Part shown: positions 18 to 16,662 of the stretch, piece by piece
Layout of the letters: the number at the start of each line of letters is the position of its first letter
Numbering within the stretch: the stretch's first letter is position 1
IMG/VR virus record: IMGVR_UViG_3300037424_001593
Location: 1-64,000 of that record
Length of the DNA: 64,000 nucleotides
Direction: 5' to 3' (one strand)
Source of the DNA: a virus
Taxonomy: Duplodnaviria; Caudoviricetes
Position numbers and translations under genes: made by a program
The notes under the pieces: model-generated
What the model was told of the DNA's origin: nothing
Database searches by the model: none
What the model saw: only the letters and a program-made list of their open reading frames with translations

Positions 18-1505
18 TTGCGCATTGCGCCGCGCACCGCGGACGATCAAACGTGTCCACACGACCAACGCGCTACAGGCCAACATTTCGGGTGCTTCTA
101 CCGCTGTGCGATGTTCCAGGCGAAGACCCCGCGTACGCGTGAAGAGACGCTCGCTGCAATCGACGAGCTTCTCGAGGACCGTTATGCGGTGTTTGGCAGA
201 CGCACCAAGGATGATGACCACGAGCCGTGGAGGAACACATGAGCAAGTTTGCCAAGCCTGCCTTCACGGGCATCAAGCGCGTGTCTACGTACGAGGTCAG
301 CGAGGGCCGAACGCTCACGATCACCCTTACGCGCGAGGAGCGTGGGTGGTGGGTCCGCGAGGATAAGTCGTGGGACGCGGACCTCTCTTGCTCGACGGGG
401 CCGTTCGATATGCGAACTGCGCTCGACGTCGAAGAAGAATGGGCTGCGCATGCGAGGCTCACGTGGCGGTGACGCGCACGCCTACTGGGCGGCGCCTTGA
501 GATGCCGGCCGTCGGTTTCCCCGTGCGCACGCCCGAAGCGCGCAAGTTGCGCGCGTGGTACCTCGCGCAGTACCCGGAGCTCCAGACCATGACCGTCGAT
601 TACGCTGCGCTCGAGCGCCGCATCGAGGCTGCGCTGCAACACCCGCAGAATCGAAAGCAGCGTCGCGCCGAAGCGGCAAGAGCTCGAGGTGTCCGATGAA
701 CCGGCCCGAATGGGTGAAGTGCGTCGGCACCGGGCATGCGCTCGATCGCGAAGCACGGAAGACGTGCTGCGGGCGTACGCACGACGCCTTCGAGTGGACG
801 TTCCTGGACCCCACGCACGCGTACCTCACCATGCGCGCGGGTAGGCGTTTTGCCGCGTGTCCCGAGTGCGTAGACGAGATCACCAAAGTGCTGCGAGGGC
901 AACCATGACCGTACGCGTGAAGGGTGCGTCTCCTGAGGCCCCGCGTTGCTTCTGGTCAAAGCACGGCGACTACGGCTGGTGTGTCGCTGTGCCCGAGGAC
1001 AACGTGCCGAGAAAGAGGAACGGCATCCGCGGACCTGTGCGTGTACACGCGAAATCCGGCGAGGTGCGCGAGGCCTATCTGCTCGATCGCGTCGGCAGCA
1101 TTCCGTTTCAAGGCGTCATGTACGTGCGCTTCACCGAGGACCGCGATCCTTTCGACACTCTGGGTGATGGTGTAGCTGACGGAGACGCAGACGCAGACGT
1201 TTTCAGCGACTACTGCGGCCTGAACTACGGCGGCGGTCCCGATTGGGGCGACAGGGAGTACTGAGGCGATGAACTACAAGAAACGAGCACGAGCTCGACG
1301 ACGGCATGCGCCACTCTGGCGCTTAGCGTGGATCGCGCCGCTGTACACCGCGGTCTTCCTCAAAGGAATCGACCCTGAATGGCAGGGAGCGCAAGATGCG
1401 CTTTACGCGCTTCCACCTCGGCGTTTCGCACGTGCGGCTTCGCGTCTCGCATACGTACGCTTGCTGCGGCGTAACGCTCAGAGCCGCGGCGGCCAGATGA
1501 AGTAG
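18..1505 (+). other. Cluster of small rightward hypothetical phage ORFs (approx. 18-242, 239-472, 469-699, 696-908, 905-1264, 1269-1505)
   Basis: Tightly packed ORFs, several with ATGA/GTGA stop-start overlaps; no recognisable domains. Confidence 0.6.
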
Positions 1506-5557: not shown

Positions 5558-6864
5558 TAGATGTTCCTCATCATGTTCAAGAACGATCCAGAAGCGTCCG
5601 TAACGGCGGTCGTGAACGTGCGAAGGTACCCTGAGCCTGTTGCGTTCGTTTGCGTCGCACTCACGTCAATACCAAGTGCGAAACCATCGAAGGAGCAGTT
5701 AGTTATGCTGTTGCCGACGCCCGTACCTTGGAAGGACGCGCCAGCGCTTGCGGCGTTGACACTCGTTGTTTGAAATGTGGAATCGGTAACACGTCCACAA
5801 ATCAAGCCGCTTGCGTTGCTGCCCGTTGCGAAGATAACACCGAACTGCGCAAGCGCTGCGATGTCCAGGATATACGCGTATCCGTTCTCCACTACAGGAC
5901 CCATGCGCAGTGCACCCGAGCCCGCGCTTGCGCCCAGACGTAGGGCTGCACGTCCCAGGCCCAAAAACTGCCAACCCACGCAGGACACAGTACCTTCTAA
6001 GTCAAAACCAATGTCTGCACGTTCAACCTGACAACTGATCAACTGCGACGTGCGTTGGAATGACGCTGCGCCGCGGGATTGAATCTCAAAACCGCTCAGA
6101 TCCGCAGCGACACCGAGCGCACGCTTCGAAACGCCGCTTAGAAGCACATGCTCGAGGTAAACACCTGCGTCCCCCGCAACGGTACGCACAATAGACGTAA
6201 GCGACTCATTCGCGACCTGTCCCGCGGTCTGCGTAGACATCGCGATTTCCACCTGGCGCATAGTCGCTAGATGGGCCAGCGAAATGACCTCTGTACCCGC
6301 AGCACCCACCGAAGGTGCAGGTACACCGATGAATACGTTCGAGAGCTCTGCGTACGTCGCGAGCGTTGCGATACGACGATTTGTCGCTGTAGCGTTAAAA
6401 ATCACGCCACCCCAGGTACCGCCGTAGCATCGCACAAAATCGGGTATTGTGAGCACTGTTGAAATCGTGTACGTCCCGGGACGAACCCACACATCCAAAC
6501 CAAGAGCGCCTGCCGCCGTAAGAGCCGCTTGAAGTTGCACCCCATCGCCCACGTCGAGGTAGTTACACACCTCGAGCGTATCACCCGCGACGCTGTTGCC
6601 TACGATGAGCCGCGGTCCTTGGTGGTCCGTGTTCGGGTTCGCGCCCCACGTTGCGTCAGCACCGCTGAGCGTGCCTTTCGACGTGCAAACATACTGTTGT
6701 GTGGTGCCTGTAACGTACGCGGTGTCGCCGACCTCAAGCTGCGTGAAGTACGGGTTGGCGAGTGCGTTTCCGCTCGCGTTCGGAAGATCTGCGGCAGTCG
6801 CGTAGTTGCCCCAGTCGCGGCTGTACTGCGAACGAGCTTGCAGCGTAGGAGTCTTCGCAGCCAT
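5557..6864 (-). CDS. Beta-helix (pectate-lyase-like) spike protein
   Basis: DGVQLQAALTAAGA..VWVRPGTYTISTVLTIP beta-helix cap motif; Asn/Gly-rich repeats downstream. Confidence 0.7.
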   Translation of the reverse strand: MAAKTPTLQARSQYSRDWGNYATAADLPNASGNALANPYFTQLEVGDTAYVTGTTQQYVCTSKGTLSGADATWGANPNTDHQGPRLIVGNSVAGDTLEVCNYLDVGDGVQLQAALTAAGALGLDVWVRPGTYTISTVLTIPDFVRCYGGTWGGVIFNATATNRRIATLATYAELSNVFIGVPAPSVGAAGTEVISLAHLATMRQVEIAMSTQTAGQVANESLTSIVRTVAGDAGVYLEHVLLSGVSKRALGVAADLSGFEIQSRGAASFQRTSQLISCQVERADIGFDLEGTVSCVGWQFLGLGRAALRLGASAGSGALRMGPVVENGYAYILDIAALAQFGVIFATGSNASGLICGRVTDSTFQTTSVNAASAGASFQGTGVGNSITNCSFDGFALGIDVSATQTNATGSGYLRTFTTAVTDASGSFLNMMRNI

Positions 6865-8018
6865 CAGGGCACCGCCACATTCTCTGCGCTGTTGCAGTTT
6901 ACACCGAGGAGCGCGATGGATGTCGTCGCGCCGCGCGTAATGTTGCCGATCACGTTCGCGTAGTCTTGTGTCGCCGTCCCGCTGATGCCGATCGGGAACT
7001 TGTCGAACGTGTTGCCTTGCGCGACAAAGCCCTCACCAATCTCGTCGAGCTCGATGCCCGTCGCAGTTGCATCAAGCCCCGCAGGAGCAAGAAACGTGGT
7101 GCCGATGATGCGCGCGCCGAAGAGCCCCGTCACGAAGCCGCCCGTACGCACGTAGGCGCCGCTCACATCCGCCATCACACCGTAGATGTTCTGCGTCGCG
7201 AAGTCGATGAGGCCGCCGATCCACGACGGCGCGTAGATACCGTCAAGCACGCTTGTCTGCATCAGCACACCAACTTGCGCAATCGATACCGCCTGGCACC
7301 CGATAGCATCCACGCGCCCGCTGAGCTCGTACCCAACATCGCCACCGCGCACAAGGCAGTGCTCGAGCTGACAGTCGTACGCGCCCTCCATCTGCACACC
7401 CGTCATTGTGCCGCCACTGGCGTCAATGAGTCGTGAGTATGGGATCGTGATCTGTACGTTGATGAGGCGTCCGGACGTAGACTGCAATCGAACTGCGTAG
7501 CGGAGTGTCTCTGTTGCTTGTTGCAGCGCAGTAAGTGACGCGAGTGTGACGGTGCAGTTGCGGAGTTGGTTGTTGCTGCCGAGTTGCACAAGAGCGTCGC
7601 CGACAGGAACGCCCGTAGGGATACTTGCTTGGATTGCGAGGCGCTCGATGACGCAGTTCTCGCGGCTGTCGATCACCGTGCGGTTCGTTGCGCTCGCGGC
7701 AAGCACAGTAGCTGCGCCCGCGCCGTGCATCGTGACGTTGTCTGGAATGTCGAGTGGTGTCGAGATCACGTACGTCCCAGATCGCACGTGCACGTCGCCG
7801 TTGAACGCTGCGGCTGCGGTGAGCGCGGCTTGGAGCTGCACCCCATCGCCCACATCGAGGTAGTTGCACACGGCGATAGTGTCGCCAGCGCCGCTGTTCC
7901 CGACGATGACCTTGGGCCCGTAACGATCAAAAAACCCGAACGGCGAGCCACCGCTGTTATTCCCTGCAGCGTAGAGCGGGACAACGGAGCCAAGGGCGTT
8001 CGAAGGGGTGTGCAACAT
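6864..8018 (-). CDS. Beta-helix (pectate-lyase-like) spike protein 2
   Basis: Start reassigned to ATG 8018; DGVQLQAALTAAAA..VHVRSGTYVISTPLDIP..HGAGAATVL; C-terminal GNT/GNI repeats. Confidence 0.75.
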   Translation of the reverse strand: MLHTPSNALGSVVPLYAAGNNSGGSPFGFFDRYGPKVIVGNSGAGDTIAVCNYLDVGDGVQLQAALTAAAAFNGDVHVRSGTYVISTPLDIPDNVTMHGAGAATVLAASATNRTVIDSRENCVIERLAIQASIPTGVPVGDALVQLGSNNQLRNCTVTLASLTALQQATETLRYAVRLQSTSGRLINVQITIPYSRLIDASGGTMTGVQMEGAYDCQLEHCLVRGGDVGYELSGRVDAIGCQAVSIAQVGVLMQTSVLDGIYAPSWIGGLIDFATQNIYGVMADVSGAYVRTGGFVTGLFGARIIGTTFLAPAGLDATATGIELDEIGEGFVAQGNTFDKFPIGISGTATQDYANVIGNITRGATTSIALLGVNCNSAENVAVP

Positions 8019-8019
8019 A

Positions 8020-8421
8020 TCAGCGCACCTTGTGCACGAGGTAGAAACCGCCGAGCGCGGCGAGCGGAAGCCCGATGAGGAGGATCTTCTTGCGGCGGAT
8101 CTGCGCGCGCACCGTCGCAAGACGTGCCGCCATGTCTGGGTAGTCGGCGAGGATGAGCAGGTCGAACTGCTCGACGATCGACGGGTCGAAAATCGTGAGC
8201 TGATCGCCACGCGGCCTGTGCGTCGCGACCCAGGTCTGCCAGTGCGCGATGTGTCCGAGCACGCTCTCGAGCACTGCGACGTTCGCGTCGCTGATGAACG
8301 AGCTGTTGATCATGTCGAGCGCTGTATCGTTAAGCACCTGCAGGTGCGTCATCAAGATGACGCCCGTCGCGAAATCAATCGGCGTGCCCTCGAAGCGGTT
8401 CGGGATGATGAGCGCGGTCAT
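8020..8421 (-). CDS. C-terminally anchored membrane protein
   Basis: ILLIGLPLAALGGFYLV + HKVR. Confidence 0.7.
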   Translation of the reverse strand: MTALIIPNRFEGTPIDFATGVILMTHLQVLNDTALDMINSSFISDANVAVLESVLGHIAHWQTWVATHRPRGDQLTIFDPSIVEQFDLLILADYPDMAARLATVRAQIRRKKILLIGLPLAALGGFYLVHKVR

Positions 8422-10985: not shown

Positions 10986-11783
10986 TTACCTCGAGAGCAG
11001 GTAGTAGATTTGGACGTTCGCGTTTGTGGGAACGACGTACGTGTACTTAGGATCCGCGGCAGCGTCCAAAGGATCGATGTCCGCGAGCCCGACACGAAGG
11101 CGGAGCTCCGCGTACTGCGCGACGTCAAAGGGCAACGTGAACTGCGGCACGATCTCCGCCGACGCGGGCTGTGTAGCTACGCAGAACGCGTTGAAGTTGA
11201 GCTGCGTCGCGTAGCAGTTGCGGTACGCAACCCACGGGGGCGCAACGCTTGTGTACGCATCGACGATCGGCTGATAGCCGCGCACGGTCGGATCGACGAC
11301 GCCGATCGGATACCAGTAGAGCGTGTCGAGCTCGCTGTCGAGCGACTGCTGTGTCGTTTGGGGGATCGGCAGCGTCACTTCCGGAATCACCGCAAGTACG
11401 CTCACGGCGTTTGCGACCACGCTTGTGCCGGGGAAGTAGCGAAAGAAGAACGTGATGAAGCGCGCGTCGCGGACATCAATGGACGTGAGCACATCGCCGC
11501 CGACACCTACGACGCCGCCGCCAGCGAAGCTGATCTCGGTGAGCGGGTTCGTGGGATTCTGCTCTGTTGCCGTGCTAACGAACGTCGCGCGACGGTAAAG
11601 TTGCGGACCATCCACCTGCTTTGGCACTTCGAACTGCGGGAAGTCGTTACCTGGGATAGGCCGCGTCTCACCATCATCGCTCTCGAAGCCGAGCACCTGC
11701 ACGGGTGCCCCGTCGTCGCGAAGGGAACGTGCTTGCGCTTGCTGCGCCGTACGACTCGAGATGAGCTTGCTGTTCTTGCTCAT
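10986..11783 (-). CDS. Putative minor capsid/vertex beta-sandwich protein
   Basis: Start ATG 11783 (RBS AGGAG); alternating hydrophobic beta-strand patterns; follows capsid-like genes. Confidence 0.5.
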   Translation of the reverse strand: MSKNSKLISSRTAQQAQARSLRDDGAPVQVLGFESDDGETRPIPGNDFPQFEVPKQVDGPQLYRRATFVSTATEQNPTNPLTEISFAGGGVVGVGGDVLTSIDVRDARFITFFFRYFPGTSVVANAVSVLAVIPEVTLPIPQTTQQSLDSELDTLYWYPIGVVDPTVRGYQPIVDAYTSVAPPWVAYRNCYATQLNFNAFCVATQPASAEIVPQFTLPFDVAQYAELRLRVGLADIDPLDAAADPKYTYVVPTNANVQIYYLLSR

Positions 11784-12109
11784 GCTGTGACTCCTGCGTA
11801 CCACTCAATCGCAAGGCCCATCACGACGGTGTTGCCTTCGCACGCAAGCGCGAGGACTTGGCCCGGCGCGAGCGGCACCTCGAGCGTTTGTCCGTTTGCG
11901 AGCGGCACGAAGTTGTAGCCCTTCGAAGAGAGCACGTCCGCATCCGCTGGATCGAGCACACCGAGCACCGCTGCGCCTTGAGGGATGATCGGCGTTACCA
12001 CGCGCACGCGATTGTCTGCGGGTGGGAGCCGCTCGAGCACGACCTGAAGCTCTTGCGTAAGCACGACACGCAAGAGGTCTGTTCGCAGAAACTTTCCGTG
12101 GCCGCACAT
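11780..12109 (-). CDS. Small beta-rich virion protein
   Basis: ATGA overlap with next gene; LEVPLAPGQVLALAC resembles the capsid-paralogue motif. Confidence 0.5.
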   Translation of the reverse strand: MCGHGKFLRTDLLRVVLTQELQVVLERLPPADNRVRVVTPIIPQGAAVLGVLDPADADVLSSKGYNFVPLANGQTLEVPLAPGQVLALACEGNTVVMGLAIEWYAGVTA

Positions 12110-12113
12110 GGAT

Positions 12114-13181
12114 TCACCGCACCATCAAGTAGCCGTGGATGCCGATCGCAATCTGCGTCGGCGTAAGGAGACTCGTATCGGTGAGCGTGCTCGCGTAACG
12201 CGAGCCTTGCGCGCGCAATGTCTCCCCAGGCTCGAGCGTGAGCCCATCGCCCGGGAACGTGTGCACGATCGCGTTGCCTGTTTGGGTACCGAAGAGCGAG
12301 CTCGGCATGCGCACGACCGGCGTTGGCAGCGAAGGCCCACGCATCCAGTTGTTACCTGTGCCGTTGCCGACCTGCTTCACCTGCAGTCGATAGAGCCGCG
12401 TGTCGTAGAGCGCGGCGCTTGTCGCCGCGTCTGCCACGCTCGCGCCGACCGTGTTACCTGGACCAACCTGCAACGCCATCTCGACAATAGCCACAGGCTC
12501 GCCGCCGATGTTTTGAAACTGCGACGGGTCCAGCAACTGCGTGAGCGGGCCATTTGTCGGGAAAGTCTGAAATGCGCCGAACTGATACGGCCGCCCAGAA
12601 CGCAACCCTACACCGGTTGCGGTCACCGTGACGCCCGTACCGCCGCTCACAGTGATCGGCTCGCTTTCGACGAGACCGATCATCACAGGCTGGGCGCCTA
12701 GGATCTGCTCGACCGTGACATGTAGCGTGTCGCGCGACGAGAGCACCAGCGGCTGGTGGAAACGACACGACGCAACGCTGTTGCCGACGCTGAGCGGTGG
12801 CGCCGTGTACGTGTTGCACCAGCCAGGAAGGCGGATGCGGTTCTCGTTCATATAGAACTCTTGGTAGCGCTCGAGCCGCAGATCGACGCCCTGCGCGGCC
12901 TCGTTGTACGTGTACCGCAACACCGCTACCGGATCGACTACACCAACCGTGAGCGGCGCGTACATCGGCGACGCGATCACATGCGTGAGACGTACGGGAA
13001 ACTTCTCTGCGTTCGAAAACGTCGCGCCGTCGCCGTTATACACGGGCGGCGTCGAAACGTCAGTGTCGAATGTCGAGAAATCGAGGAAGTCGTAGTAGAA
13101 GCGCGGCTCGATGAGCACGCCCTTACCGTGGTTCACCGCGGCGAACGCAACGAGCTCTGCAAACGTTTTGTGCTGCGACAT
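12114..13181 (-). CDS. Capsid-like protein with two internal repeats (putative tandem jelly-roll)
   Basis: FSNAEKFPVRLTHV / FQNIGGEPVAIVEM; QPLVLSSRDTLHV / GLTLEPGETLRA; C-terminal IAIGIHGY. Confidence 0.55.
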   Translation of the reverse strand: MSQHKTFAELVAFAAVNHGKGVLIEPRFYYDFLDFSTFDTDVSTPPVYNGDGATFSNAEKFPVRLTHVIASPMYAPLTVGVVDPVAVLRYTYNEAAQGVDLRLERYQEFYMNENRIRLPGWCNTYTAPPLSVGNSVASCRFHQPLVLSSRDTLHVTVEQILGAQPVMIGLVESEPITVSGGTGVTVTATGVGLRSGRPYQFGAFQTFPTNGPLTQLLDPSQFQNIGGEPVAIVEMALQVGPGNTVGASVADAATSAALYDTRLYRLQVKQVGNGTGNNWMRGPSLPTPVVRMPSSLFGTQTGNAIVHTFPGDGLTLEPGETLRAQGSRYASTLTDTSLLTPTQIAIGIHGYLMVR

Positions 13182-13184
13182 GGA

Positions 13185-14375
13185 TCAGGCCTCGACAGCG
13201 GCGTAACCGCAGAAGGAGATGTAGAAAAACGTATTGAGGTCGTCGTCTTCGCCTATGCCGAGCGGAGCGTTGAGGACACCTTGCTGGAGTTGCACGTCAA
13301 ACGCTTCACCGGGCGCAAGCGTAAGCGGTCGCGAAAGACGTGACGCAAACGCCGGTGTCATTGTCGGGCTGACGATCGAAAGCGGTGCGCCGTCTCGCCA
13401 CCAGTAGGCCTGCGTGCCCGCGTTGCGCGTGCGCACCTTGACGGGCGTGGTCATCGAGAGCGGCCCCGCAGTAGCGCGCGACGTCTCGTCGATCGAACGC
13501 TCATCGAACGTGATTGCGAGACCACCCAGGTTAGTCGGCACGTTGTAACTTGCCTTCTGCCTCAACATCTCGCGCGGCGAAAGCTGCTGTCCAGGCGGAT
13601 AATTTTGCGCTTCCGCGCCGCCCGTGTATCCAGCGTAGAACGTGATTGTGGGCGGCAACTCACCGCCTGAGGTGAGAAACTGCGTGAGCGCGTCTGCATA
13701 CGGCTGATAGCGCTGCGTTGCCGCTGCCACAGAGAGTTGTGCGATGCTCACTGCCTGCCGTGTGTACGTCATCTGCGGCCAGTTCGCAGGCGTCCCGGGT
13801 GCAGTCGGTGTGTACAAGTTGATGTCTGCCGTCGGCGTGGCTGCCGTCGTATCGACAAGCGTTGGTACGCGCGCGCCGAGCTGAATCTCGAGCATTGCAT
13901 CCGCAGGAAGCACAGGCGGAAGCTCGAAGTCCCAGGCACAGCGATTCACCGTCGGGCGATACCACGTCGGGTTTGCTGTAAGAAGCATCGGATTGGTTGC
14001 AAACGATGCCGGATCGAGAGGCTCCGCTGCCGGAACAGGCTCGAGCAACATCGGCGCGTAGTGCTTGCTGTAGCGCGGCCCTCCGGCAGTTGCGATGGAG
14101 AGCCCGATACTCGCGCCTGCACGCTGCACGGTCGTCGTGAGCCCACCTTCGGTCACCCACTGCATGATTACGTGGGTGAAGATGATGGGATACTTTTCGC
14201 CGTTGTAGAGCGTGTTGGGATCAATCGGCGTAGACACGCTATACAGGTTCGAGCTTGTCCGCGACAACGTCGCTGACCACAACGCGCGCGGCTCGTAGTA
14301 AAACCCCGGCTGCGGCTTGAGGAGCTCGTTCGCGGGCAGGGCGAGCAGGTTTTGCTGTCGTGCGTTGAGCTTCAT
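13185..14375 (-). CDS. Capsid-like protein with two internal repeats (paralogue of 12114-13181)
   Basis: LYNGEKYPIIFTHVI; FELPPVLPADAMLEIQL / RPLTLAPGEAFDVQL; C-terminal FYISFCGY. Confidence 0.55.
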   Translation of the reverse strand: MKLNARQQNLLALPANELLKPQPGFYYEPRALWSATLSRTSSNLYSVSTPIDPNTLYNGEKYPIIFTHVIMQWVTEGGLTTTVQRAGASIGLSIATAGGPRYSKHYAPMLLEPVPAAEPLDPASFATNPMLLTANPTWYRPTVNRCAWDFELPPVLPADAMLEIQLGARVPTLVDTTAATPTADINLYTPTAPGTPANWPQMTYTRQAVSIAQLSVAAATQRYQPYADALTQFLTSGGELPPTITFYAGYTGGAEAQNYPPGQQLSPREMLRQKASYNVPTNLGGLAITFDERSIDETSRATAGPLSMTTPVKVRTRNAGTQAYWWRDGAPLSIVSPTMTPAFASRLSRPLTLAPGEAFDVQLQQGVLNAPLGIGEDDDLNTFFYISFCGYAAVEA

Positions 14376-14400: not shown

Positions 14401-14440
14401 AAACAAGAAACCCCTCGAACACCGCATGCTCGAGGGGCTT
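14401..14440 (-). terminator. Rho-independent terminator after the three short capsid paralogues
   Basis: CCCCTCGAGCA-TGCGG-TGTTCGAGGGG + TTTCTTGTTT on minus strand. Confidence 0.75.
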
Positions 14441-14477
14441 CATCGGTGCTCGAGCCGAGCTCGACCTCACGAAGAGA

Positions 14478-15158
14478 TCAGGCCACCGGACGACGCTTCA
14501 TGCCGTCGAGCCACCAGCGAAGACGGATCGCCTGATTCAGGTCGATCATCGTGTTGTACGTCTTGCACTGCAGGTAGAGGTTGCGGTCACTCTCGATGTA
14601 GATCGGGAGATTCAGCATCCACTGGTTGTTCGCACTGACGCGACCACCTGTGCCGACGTCGTACGCTGAGGCGCTGTCGACGACCTCCGCATACGAGGTG
14701 CCGTGGACCACGACGCCGACCGACTGCGGGATCCCGCTGAAGGGCTGGCGAAGCTGGGGCTTGCTCTGGTTCGCGCCCACGTAGAGCTCGACGACGACGT
14801 CGCGCTCGAGCACGAGCAGATTGTGCCGCGAGACCATCGGGATGTCGGCGGGGGAGCCGATGTCCGCAGCCTGCTCCGGCGCGGCGGTGAGGCCGAACGC
14901 TTCGTAGGTGACGCCGTACACGACGAAGGCTTCGTCGTAGTTCGTGCGTGCCTTCGTGAGCCAGTTCGTATCGTTGTCCGTCGAGTTGCGGGGCGCGAGA
15001 CCCTGCGACGAGACCGGATTACCCGACACGTACTGGAATGCACGGAGGTTGAGCTTGACGCCCGCCGCGAACTCCATGACGGAGTACTGGGGGTAGTGCA
15101 GCCACTCGTCGAGCTGGATGGTGCTGCCGTCGTAGAGTCGAAGATCGCGGATTGCCAT
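14478..15158 (-). CDS. Putative major capsid protein paralogue 3 (single jelly-roll-like)
   Basis: LRLYDG..EW..QYS..AFQY..RNSTDNDTN..EAFVVYGV..LNLPIYI..LRWWLDGMKRRPVA. Confidence 0.65.
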   Translation of the reverse strand: MAIRDLRLYDGSTIQLDEWLHYPQYSVMEFAAGVKLNLRAFQYVSGNPVSSQGLAPRNSTDNDTNWLTKARTNYDEAFVVYGVTYEAFGLTAAPEQAADIGSPADIPMVSRHNLLVLERDVVVELYVGANQSKPQLRQPFSGIPQSVGVVVHGTSYAEVVDSASAYDVGTGGRVSANNQWMLNLPIYIESDRNLYLQCKTYNTMIDLNQAIRLRWWLDGMKRRPVA

Positions 15159-15176: not shown

Positions 15177-15896
15177 TCAGGCGACGGGGCGCTTGTGATC
15201 GCCGAGAAGGTGGATGCGCAAGCGAATGCGCGCGTCTGCCGCAGAAGAGCCAGTGAAGGCCAGCGCGGAGGGCGAATCGATCGCACCGGTCGGCGCGATG
15301 AAGCGCGCCCGGAACGTCTCACCACCCTGGATGAAGAGGGGCGACGCGAGCTGCCGCACGCCCTTGATGCTCGTCGAGCCGTTGTTGCCGACGATGTAGC
15401 CTGCCGCGCCGGAGAATCCGACACCGCCCGCCGTGCCGCTCTCCGCGCCCGAACCGGCTGCGAAAAACGAGACCGGAACGCGGAGGTATTCCTTCACGCC
15501 CGCGATGAGGAAGCTCATGATGAGCGAGTCCTGAATGCGGAGCATGTTGCGCAGACCGACATCGGGGAAGATCTCGTTGTCCGCACTCGTCATGAGCGGC
15601 GCCTCGCTCGGCGTGCCCACATTGATGCTGTAGAACTCGATGCGGATCGCTCGGATGAGCATCGCTTCGTTTTCCGGCAGCTGTCCACCCTGACCCTGCA
15701 GGTTGGTGTCGGCGTACGTCGCGTTGCGCTGCGCCGCGCCCGGGATGGCCTGGTTCAGGCCGTAGGAGAAGGCGTCGAGCGTCGTGAACGAGCCCGTGCC
15801 GAGCTCCACGGTCGAGTAGAGACCCTCCGCCGTGGTCCAGTCGGCCGGCGTCATCACGCGGCCATCTGGATATCGAATCTTGAGTAGCTGACCCAT
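15177..15896 (-). CDS. Putative major capsid protein paralogue 2 (single jelly-roll-like)
   Basis: Start ATG 15896; IRYPDG..DW..LYST..AFSY..RNATYADTN..EAMLIRAI..LASPLFI..LRIHLLGDHKRPVA. Confidence 0.65.
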   Translation of the reverse strand: MGQLLKIRYPDGRVMTPADWTTAEGLYSTVELGTGSFTTLDAFSYGLNQAIPGAAQRNATYADTNLQGQGGQLPENEAMLIRAIRIEFYSINVGTPSEAPLMTSADNEIFPDVGLRNMLRIQDSLIMSFLIAGVKEYLRVPVSFFAAGSGAESGTAGGVGFSGAAGYIVGNNGSTSIKGVRQLASPLFIQGGETFRARFIAPTGAIDSPSALAFTGSSAADARIRLRIHLLGDHKRPVA

Positions 15897-15918: not shown

Positions 15919-16662
15919 TCAGCTGACGGGCTTCTTGTAGAGGCCTTCGAGGCACACACGCACTCGATAGAGGCGCTGCGCGTTCGCGGCCGGAGAACCC
16001 ACAGCGTTTGCGGTGAGACCGATGTTCAGGGCCTCGCTCGTGGGATTACGGACCTGGATTTCGAACTTCTCCTGGCCGCCGATGTGGATCGGGACCGTGA
16101 GACAGCGCGAAGCCTCCGCCGAAGGGATGCCGCTCGCGCCCGTCGGGATCGCCGACTGCGCTGCGACCGTACCGGCTGCGCCGGCCTGAGAGAACACACC
16201 GAAGCCGGTCGGCCAGTAGGCGAACGGTGCACGGTGCTTGAGCTTCTGGCTGATCAGGATCTCGAACACGGTGGAGCGGAACAGACGTCCGAGCTGCCAC
16301 GGTGAGGGGAGCGGATCGAAGGCCAGCGTCTCGACAGCGGTCGTCGCGTTGCCGGCCGAGCTCATCACGAGCGCTGCGAACTCGGGCTTGACGGAGTAGA
16401 TCAGGAACTCCTCCGTCGAGCTGAGGCCGTTCGGCGTCGAGATGTTCGTGTCGGCTTCGGTCGCCGTGCGCTTCGTCGTGATGTTCTGGGTCGAAGAGAC
16501 CTGATCGCTCACGACGTAGTTGAAGAGTGGGATGATCTCGTCCGTCGCGCCATTCATGATGTCGCAGGTCGAGTACAGCGGCTGGTCGGTCCAGTCCACG
16601 AACGCGACTTGCTGGCCGTCAGGAAGGCGGAGCGTCGTGATCTGGTTGATGGGTGAGAACAT
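15919..16662 (-). CDS. Putative major capsid protein paralogue 1 (single jelly-roll-like)
   Basis: LRLPDG..DW..LYST..LFNY..RTATEADTN..EEFLIYSV..LTVPIHI..VRVCLEGLYKKPVS. Confidence 0.65.
   Translation of the reverse strand: MFSPINQITTLRLPDGQQVAFVDWTDQPLYSTCDIMNGATDEIIPLFNYVVSDQVSSTQNITTKRTATEADTNISTPNGLSSTEEFLIYSVKPEFAALVMSSAGNATTAVETLAFDPLPSPWQLGRLFRSTVFEILISQKLKHRAPFAYWPTGFGVFSQAGAAGTVAAQSAIPTGASGIPSAEASRCLTVPIHIGGQEKFEIQVRNPTSEALNIGLTANAVGSPAANAQRLYRVRVCLEGLYKKPVS

Follow-up and report, generated by a model that had tools for sequence, protein, structure and literature searches.

An operon for three short and two internally repeated, predicted jelly-roll proteins: candidate shell components of an uncultured virus

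Introduction

Vertical single-barrel viruses have a tall and a small capsid protein, VP4 and VP7 in HHIV-2, HCIV-1 and SH1 and VP17 and VP16 in the Thermus phage P23-77 (PMC6414509; PDB 6h82, 6h9c, 6qt9, 3zmn, 3zmo). In the Portogloboviridae, VP4 and VP10 are capsid proteins of Sulfolobus polyhedral virus 1 (SPV1) (PDB 6oj0; ICTV profile PMC8459092). Here we describe an operon in positions 1 to 64,000 of the IMG/VR virus record IMGVR_UViG_3300037424_001593, a stretch of 64,000 nucleotides hereafter called the window. Three genes for short proteins (S247, S239 and S226) are followed by two genes for longer proteins, D396 (13185..14375, minus strand; 396 amino acids (aa)) and D355 (12114..13181, minus strand; 355 aa). 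The two long proteins are paralogues with an internal duplication, and both are putative components of a viral shell. No published description of this virus group was found in the literature.

In architecture, the D and S proteins appear to come closest to the paired tall and short capsid proteins of HHIV-2 and P23-77. As with VP7/VP4 and VP16/VP17, a predicted single-jelly-roll protein and a taller, putative two-barrel protein are encoded adjacently. However, the operon encodes five paralogues, three short and two long, where those viruses have two; the D proteins have 355-396 aa instead of about 230 aa, and the genome has 77 kb instead of 17-31 kb. The D proteins also differ from that group by a sequence-detectable internal repeat, a putative terminator lies between the short and the long genes, and no sequence similarity between the two groups was found. 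HHIV-2/P23-77-type viruses encode a packaging ATPase, whereas none was found among the open reading frames (ORFs) of the genome described here. SPV1 would be a further analogue; the model of S226 matches VP4 and VP10 as a single jelly-roll capsid-type protein.

Two jelly-roll-type barrels in one chain are also found in the PRD1-type double jelly rolls, with a side-by-side layout there and an apparently nested one in the model presented below. A single barrel that was duplicated, or two that were fused, is the presumed origin of the PRD1-type proteins, and to our knowledge sequence similarity between their two barrels is no longer visible. Another known case for comparison is VP2 of the birnaviruses, a protein from double-stranded RNA viruses of animals, in which we know of no reported internal sequence repeat.

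Results

D396 and D355 are paralogues

Both long ORFs are present on the minus strand and carry all motifs that had been quoted in the initial annotation of the sequence. The motif N-x-E-K-(F/Y)-P-(V/I)-x-(L/F)-T-H-V is found at residues 57-69 of D355 and 58-70 of D396. A hairpin of the form P-x-(V/T)-L ... (D/E)-x-(L/F)-x-V occurs twice per protein (D355 144-157 and 313-326; D396 152-165 and 350-363), and a C-terminal strand containing G-Y is present in both.

Comparison of the two proteins by BLASTP gave a weak match (E 0.002 over 53 aa). To gain power, family profiles of the two proteins were built from 36 and 42 orthologues, and the merged alignment (A3) holds 78 sequences. The relatives were gathered from a protein database (20 proteins for D355, 3 for D396) and from 58 related loci (L001-L058) in viral, metagenome and genome collections; orthologues of D396 stand at the equivalent position in every locus that is long enough. 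Alignment of the two family profiles with hhalign extended end to end over 307 columns with a probability of 99.5% and an E value of 2.2e-23. The proposed paralogy of D396 and D355 is thus confirmed. D396 is the more variable of the two.

Sequence searches with the five S and D proteins and their neighbours gave no match in Pfam, PHROGs (both at E up to 1) or the PDB. Membership of the D proteins in the double jelly-roll capsid families was not found by sequence profile in these three collections either. BFVD and the ESM Atlas contained nothing closer than unnamed viral clusters.

Each long protein contains an internal repeat

Cutting D355 in the middle and aligning residues 1-168 with 169-355 by hhalign gave a weak signal (P 4e-4 to 3e-2), near that of the reversed controls. 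The three C-terminal strands of D396 matched the strands at residues 130-196 of D355 with a probability of 73% (P 3e-5), and therefore the border of the repeat was sought near residue 195. Using A3, unit 1 (D355 residues 25-194) and unit 2 (197-354) were aligned over 142 columns in a single register, with a probability of 86.9%, P 4.2e-6 and a score of 40.7. As a control, the reversed profile was aligned and scored 14.8; none of 75 column or block shuffles scored above 21.5, and their median was near 13. Because the score of the true units lies far above all shuffled and reversed controls, the duplication inside each long protein is real, and the motif pairs listed in the initial annotation are its visible tips. 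Comparisons of the units family by family returned the identical register (P 2e-4 to 3e-2). Only when the borders were set correctly and the merged profile was used did the signal become clear.

Four pairs of segments stand out in this register. E-P-R-x-Y-Y is paired with R-P-Y-x-F, F-x-N-G-E-x-x-P-V-x-L-T with F-x-N-x-G-x-E-P-V-x-x-T, the hairpin P-L-V-L...D-x-L-x-V with L-T-L-E-P-G-E-x-L-x-V, and V-x-V-x-x-x-G-x-G with the terminal strand x-G-Y-x-x-V. On the minus strand of the window, unit 1 of D355 (residues ~25-194, with the inferred strands B-I of the first copy) corresponds to 12600..13109 and unit 2 (~197-354) to 12120..12593, both defined by hhalign and the shuffles. The units of D396, with approximate borders transferred from the D355 alignment, lie at 13785..14315 (unit 1, residues ~21-197) and 13191..13784 (unit 2, residues ~198-395), also on the minus strand. 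A search for free-standing relatives of half the size yielded one fragment of 102 aa and nothing else.

Predicted structures of D355 and S226

AlphaFold2 models were made with 78-sequence alignments. Both were confident, with a predicted local distance difference test value (pLDDT) of 87.2 and a predicted template modelling score (pTM) of 0.87 for D355 (model m38cd61e3d77e), and 87.5 and 0.82 for S226. The S226 model is a single jelly roll. Its nearest structures are the capsid proteins of SPV1, HCIV-1, HHIV-2 and P23-77, and all best matches are shell proteins of tailless membrane-containing viruses, at values that the search tool rates as middling. About half of the top-50 VIA matches were common to the S226 and D355 models, and D355 matched these at lower Z (at most 5.6).

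The D355 model has two beta domains, a canonical jelly roll (residues ~22-126 and 296-355) and a second beta-sandwich (~127-295). Small complete jelly rolls superpose on domain 1 from a first residue at 22-25 to a last one at 352-355. The superposition covered 88-92 residues at 2.4-2.5 Å for cores of the nucleoplasmin type, 112 of 115 residues for FlhE and 116 residues for HHIV-2 VP7. Domain 2 (127..295) was superposed on the FedF lectin domain over 110-115 residues and on the P domain of birnavirus VP2 (221-341) over 111-112 residues. In the model, almost every ordered residue from 127 to 295 thus falls into one compact domain, and both termini lie in the other.

The best full-length Foldseek matches of D355 in the PDB and BFVD were birnavirus VP2, with E values of 1e-5 to 6e-7. 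In VP2 (IBDV 2df7/1wcd, IPNV 3ide) a P jelly roll is inserted into the S jelly roll, and the layout predicted for D355, a base barrel with an inserted or stacked second one, resembles it in architecture only: the domain orientation differs, as concluded from a template modelling (TM) score of about 0.18, and there is no sequence similarity. The double jelly-roll proteins of PRD1, PM2, PBCV-1 and their relatives matched the D355 model by one barrel only. In the model, the two domains do not appear to be placed side by side as in those proteins. The initial annotation had proposed that single and double jelly rolls are encoded in one operon; this was borne out insofar as two beta domains per chain are predicted next to the single barrel of S226, and it was not supported for a tandem of the PRD1 kind.

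The border of the sequence repeat (194/197) falls inside the second domain, in the middle of the inner domain. Based on this position, the repeats of D355 appear to be segment-swapped in the model. A direct-coupling analysis of B-I strand pairing in 215 family members gave an output that was dominated by gap and local-alignment artefacts.

The short paralogues

The short genes lie immediately upstream on the minus strand: S247 (paralogue 1, 247 aa) at 15919..16662, S239 (paralogue 2, 239 aa) at 15177..15896 and S226 (paralogue 3, 226 aa) at 14478..15158. For S239, an ORF of 260 aa that starts with GTG at 15959 and overlaps the upstream gene is probably over-extended. The ATG at 15896 was taken as the start, as the orthologues have ~230-239 aa and the profile alignment agrees with it. 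Profile comparison showed that the three short families are mutually homologous (probability 99.9-100%, E about 1e-37).

The initial annotation had also noted an echo of the ends of the long proteins in the three short ones. The S families were compared with whole D proteins, halves, units, the outer barrel, the inserted domain and a merged unit profile of 100 sequences, and none of these comparisons rose above the null. The best of them (P 0.018, score 20.3, within the null range) pairs the very segments that had been named; all others had probabilities below 4%. The echo was thus not confirmed, and it is best regarded as a fair description of a pattern and not as evidence of homology.

Conserved gene order and a hairpin between the short and long genes

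The genes belong to a tightly packed minus-strand operon that runs from ~26.6 kb down to ~1.5 kb of the window. All 31 loci with the five genes have them in the order S-S-S-D-D, and shorter loci hold compatible parts. The whole genome contains exactly three S and two D genes. Searching with the merged D355 and D396 profile yielded 326 representatives at 50% identity, on contigs of 30-87 kb. The best 150 of these all have 306-427 aa, and each was matched in one stretch. Across the 326 representatives the termini and core motifs are very strongly conserved, domain shuffling was not seen, and the proteins always have the full two-unit form. In one relative (L012:6958-9119) two genes of the D355 type stand in tandem besides one of the D396 type, making a third D gene. 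The number of two-barrel paralogues therefore varies within the lineage.

Between the S226 gene and D396 lies a G+C-rich hairpin of 16 pairs followed by a T-rich tract (14407..14441, minus strand), similar to a terminator or attenuator. Of the 28 relatives examined, 26 have an equivalent hairpin directly behind the third S gene. Its core is GCCCCTYG...CRAGGGGC, the stem sequence varies, and mostly a T-rich run comes after it. It probably acts as a terminator or attenuator and thereby controls how much short protein is made relative to long protein, which would imply that S transcripts outnumber D transcripts.

In eight relatives (L029, L026, L034, L042, L046, L014, L003 and L020) the spacer between the hairpin and the D396 orthologue is long (290-660 nt). 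A small, extremely basic ORF, starting for example with M-R-P-K-K-K-L-R, has apparently been inserted into this spacer, ahead of the first D gene; the window lacks it.

D396 and D355 share one reading frame and are separated by TGA-TCC, a stop plus one codon, before the ATG of D355 (window 13179-13190, minus strand). The same spacing is found in the closer relatives L001, L005, L007, L008, L009 and L012. Read-through of the TGA would yield a four-unit fusion of 753 aa. No fused D396-D355 form was found among the 150 best family representatives.

Directly downstream of D355, a protein of 109 aa (11780-12109, minus strand) is encoded that is kept in at least 10 relatives. Its motif L-x-V-P-L-A-P-G-Q-x-L-x-L resembles the G-H hairpin found in the D repeat, and the protein may be a further, small beta protein belonging to this module. 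Profile comparison of the downstream proteins p109, p272 and p352 with S and D revealed nothing significant; the best value was that of p109 against D unit 2 (P 0.0035). Further downstream, separate from the D genes, a pectate-lyase-like spike candidate is located at 6864-8210.

Genome context

The genome (G000) has 76,963 bp and a 127-bp identical terminal overlap, and is therefore considered a complete circular assembly. Its 83 ORFs include replication and recombination genes, an integrase, an M23 endolysin and a transglutaminase-like protease. The replication module comprises a family A polymerase, an SNF2 helicase, Sak4 and ThyX. Profile searches of the 83 ORFs with Pfam and PHROGs found neither terminase, portal, HK97 capsid or tail families nor a packaging ATPase of the FtsK/HerA type. 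Walker A motifs are confined to a DUF3987 helicase and the Sak4-like protein; the late operon has none.

One of the related loci (L058) is part of a Gemmatimonadota chromosome from a metagenome-assembled genome (CP070815.1, a record of 4.74 Mb), in which the full S-S-S-D-D block lies at about 1,175,012-1,195,938. This location points to integration as a provirus and to hosts among the Gemmatimonadota for one or more viruses of this lineage.

Discussion

In the view that we favour, the virus is an uncultured, tailless one of bacteria, D396 and D355 are components of its shell present in lower copy number, and three single-barrel proteins would form the bulk of the lattice; we put the probability of this view at roughly 0.55. 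Each D protein would have arisen by tandem duplication of a jelly-roll unit of ~165 aa, and the two copies would exchange segments at their F-G loops. Domain 1 would then consist of strands B-F of copy 1 and G-I of copy 2, forming the canonical jelly roll that holds both termini. Domain 2 would be built from strands G-I of copy 1 and B-F of copy 2, a permuted beta-sandwich nested in domain 1, and the connection from strand I of the first copy to strand B of the second (182-192 / 198-207) would be a natural hairpin within it. The D proteins are proposed to act together with the three single-jelly-roll proteins encoded just upstream. From the conserved terminator-like hairpin that separates the short from the long genes, we deduce an excess of the short proteins, as expected for the bulk lattice, and a lower copy number of the two-barrel proteins; these might occupy vertex, peripentonal or tower positions.

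Several points weigh against this view. The capsid role is deduced from genes and models. The nested topology was derived from aligned ranges and holds only if the AlphaFold2 model is correct, and the TM score to VP2, the best full-length match, is low. No sequence link was found between S and D. The hairpin could stabilise the mRNA rather than terminate transcription, and the absence of HK97 capsid, portal and terminase genes depends on the sensitivity of Pfam and PHROGs.

The D proteins might instead be vertex, spike or receptor-binding proteins with jelly-roll or lectin-like domains that sit on a shell made of S proteins only, outside the lattice. A low copy number, as implied by the terminator-like hairpin, would suit such proteins, as would the greater variability of D396 and the third D gene in one relative. 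The structural matches of this kind include the STIV A223 turret (4ind_A), the HFTV1 turret, tail-fibre and baseplate domains of phages and the FedF lectin domain. However, the strong conservation of termini and core motifs without domain shuffling would be unusual for proteins of host recognition, and a separate spike candidate is encoded downstream, so that we consider this role unlikely, though the likeliest of the rivals. Another reading takes the D proteins as accessory proteins (decoration, cement or fibre) in a tailed phage so highly divergent that profile searches miss its HK97 capsid, its portal and its terminase. The replication module is typical of tailed phages, and the jelly-roll cement proteins of KHP40, Pam1 and GP4 were among the matches. 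Yet none of the 83 ORFs matches a head, portal, terminase or tail family, the late operon lacks a Walker A motif, and there would be no precedent for a strictly conserved block of five jelly-roll paralogues that serves only for decoration. This makes an accessory role in a tailed phage very doubtful.

Hardly better placed is a true double jelly roll of the PRD1 type, as read in the initial annotation, with contiguous side-by-side barrels that form trimers and thereby pseudo-hexameric capsomers. The D proteins do contain a tandem repeat whose unit has the size of a jelly roll, and the second barrels of the PBCV-1, EhV-201, Faustovirus, SGIV, PRD1 and PM2 capsid proteins are among the matches. 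In a feature search of the Atlas, the nearest named clusters were PM2 P2_N and P2_C, at a chance-level score of 0.77. The single-barrel matches and the nested layout of the D355 model point in another direction, and we regard the PRD1-type arrangement as improbable.

Beyond the role of the two proteins in one virus, we tentatively propose that the family belongs to tailless bacterial viruses with large genomes (about 50-90 kb) that form a widespread, as yet undescribed lineage. Their shell would combine three single jelly rolls with two interlocked, segment-swapped two-barrel proteins, whose origin would be independent, traceable in sequence and distinct from that of the PRD1/adenovirus double jelly roll, and they would have no recognisable packaging motor.

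The step from a single to a double barrel is central to how jelly-roll viruses evolved, but it is known by inference only. In the D proteins the duplication is still statistically visible in the sequence, and neighbours predicted to be single barrels are encoded in the same operon. One virus would thus hold both the single- and the two-barrel version of a capsid-type fold. The D family marks a virus group that standard annotation has missed entirely. If the interlocked topology is true, it would represent a second, different route from one barrel to two.
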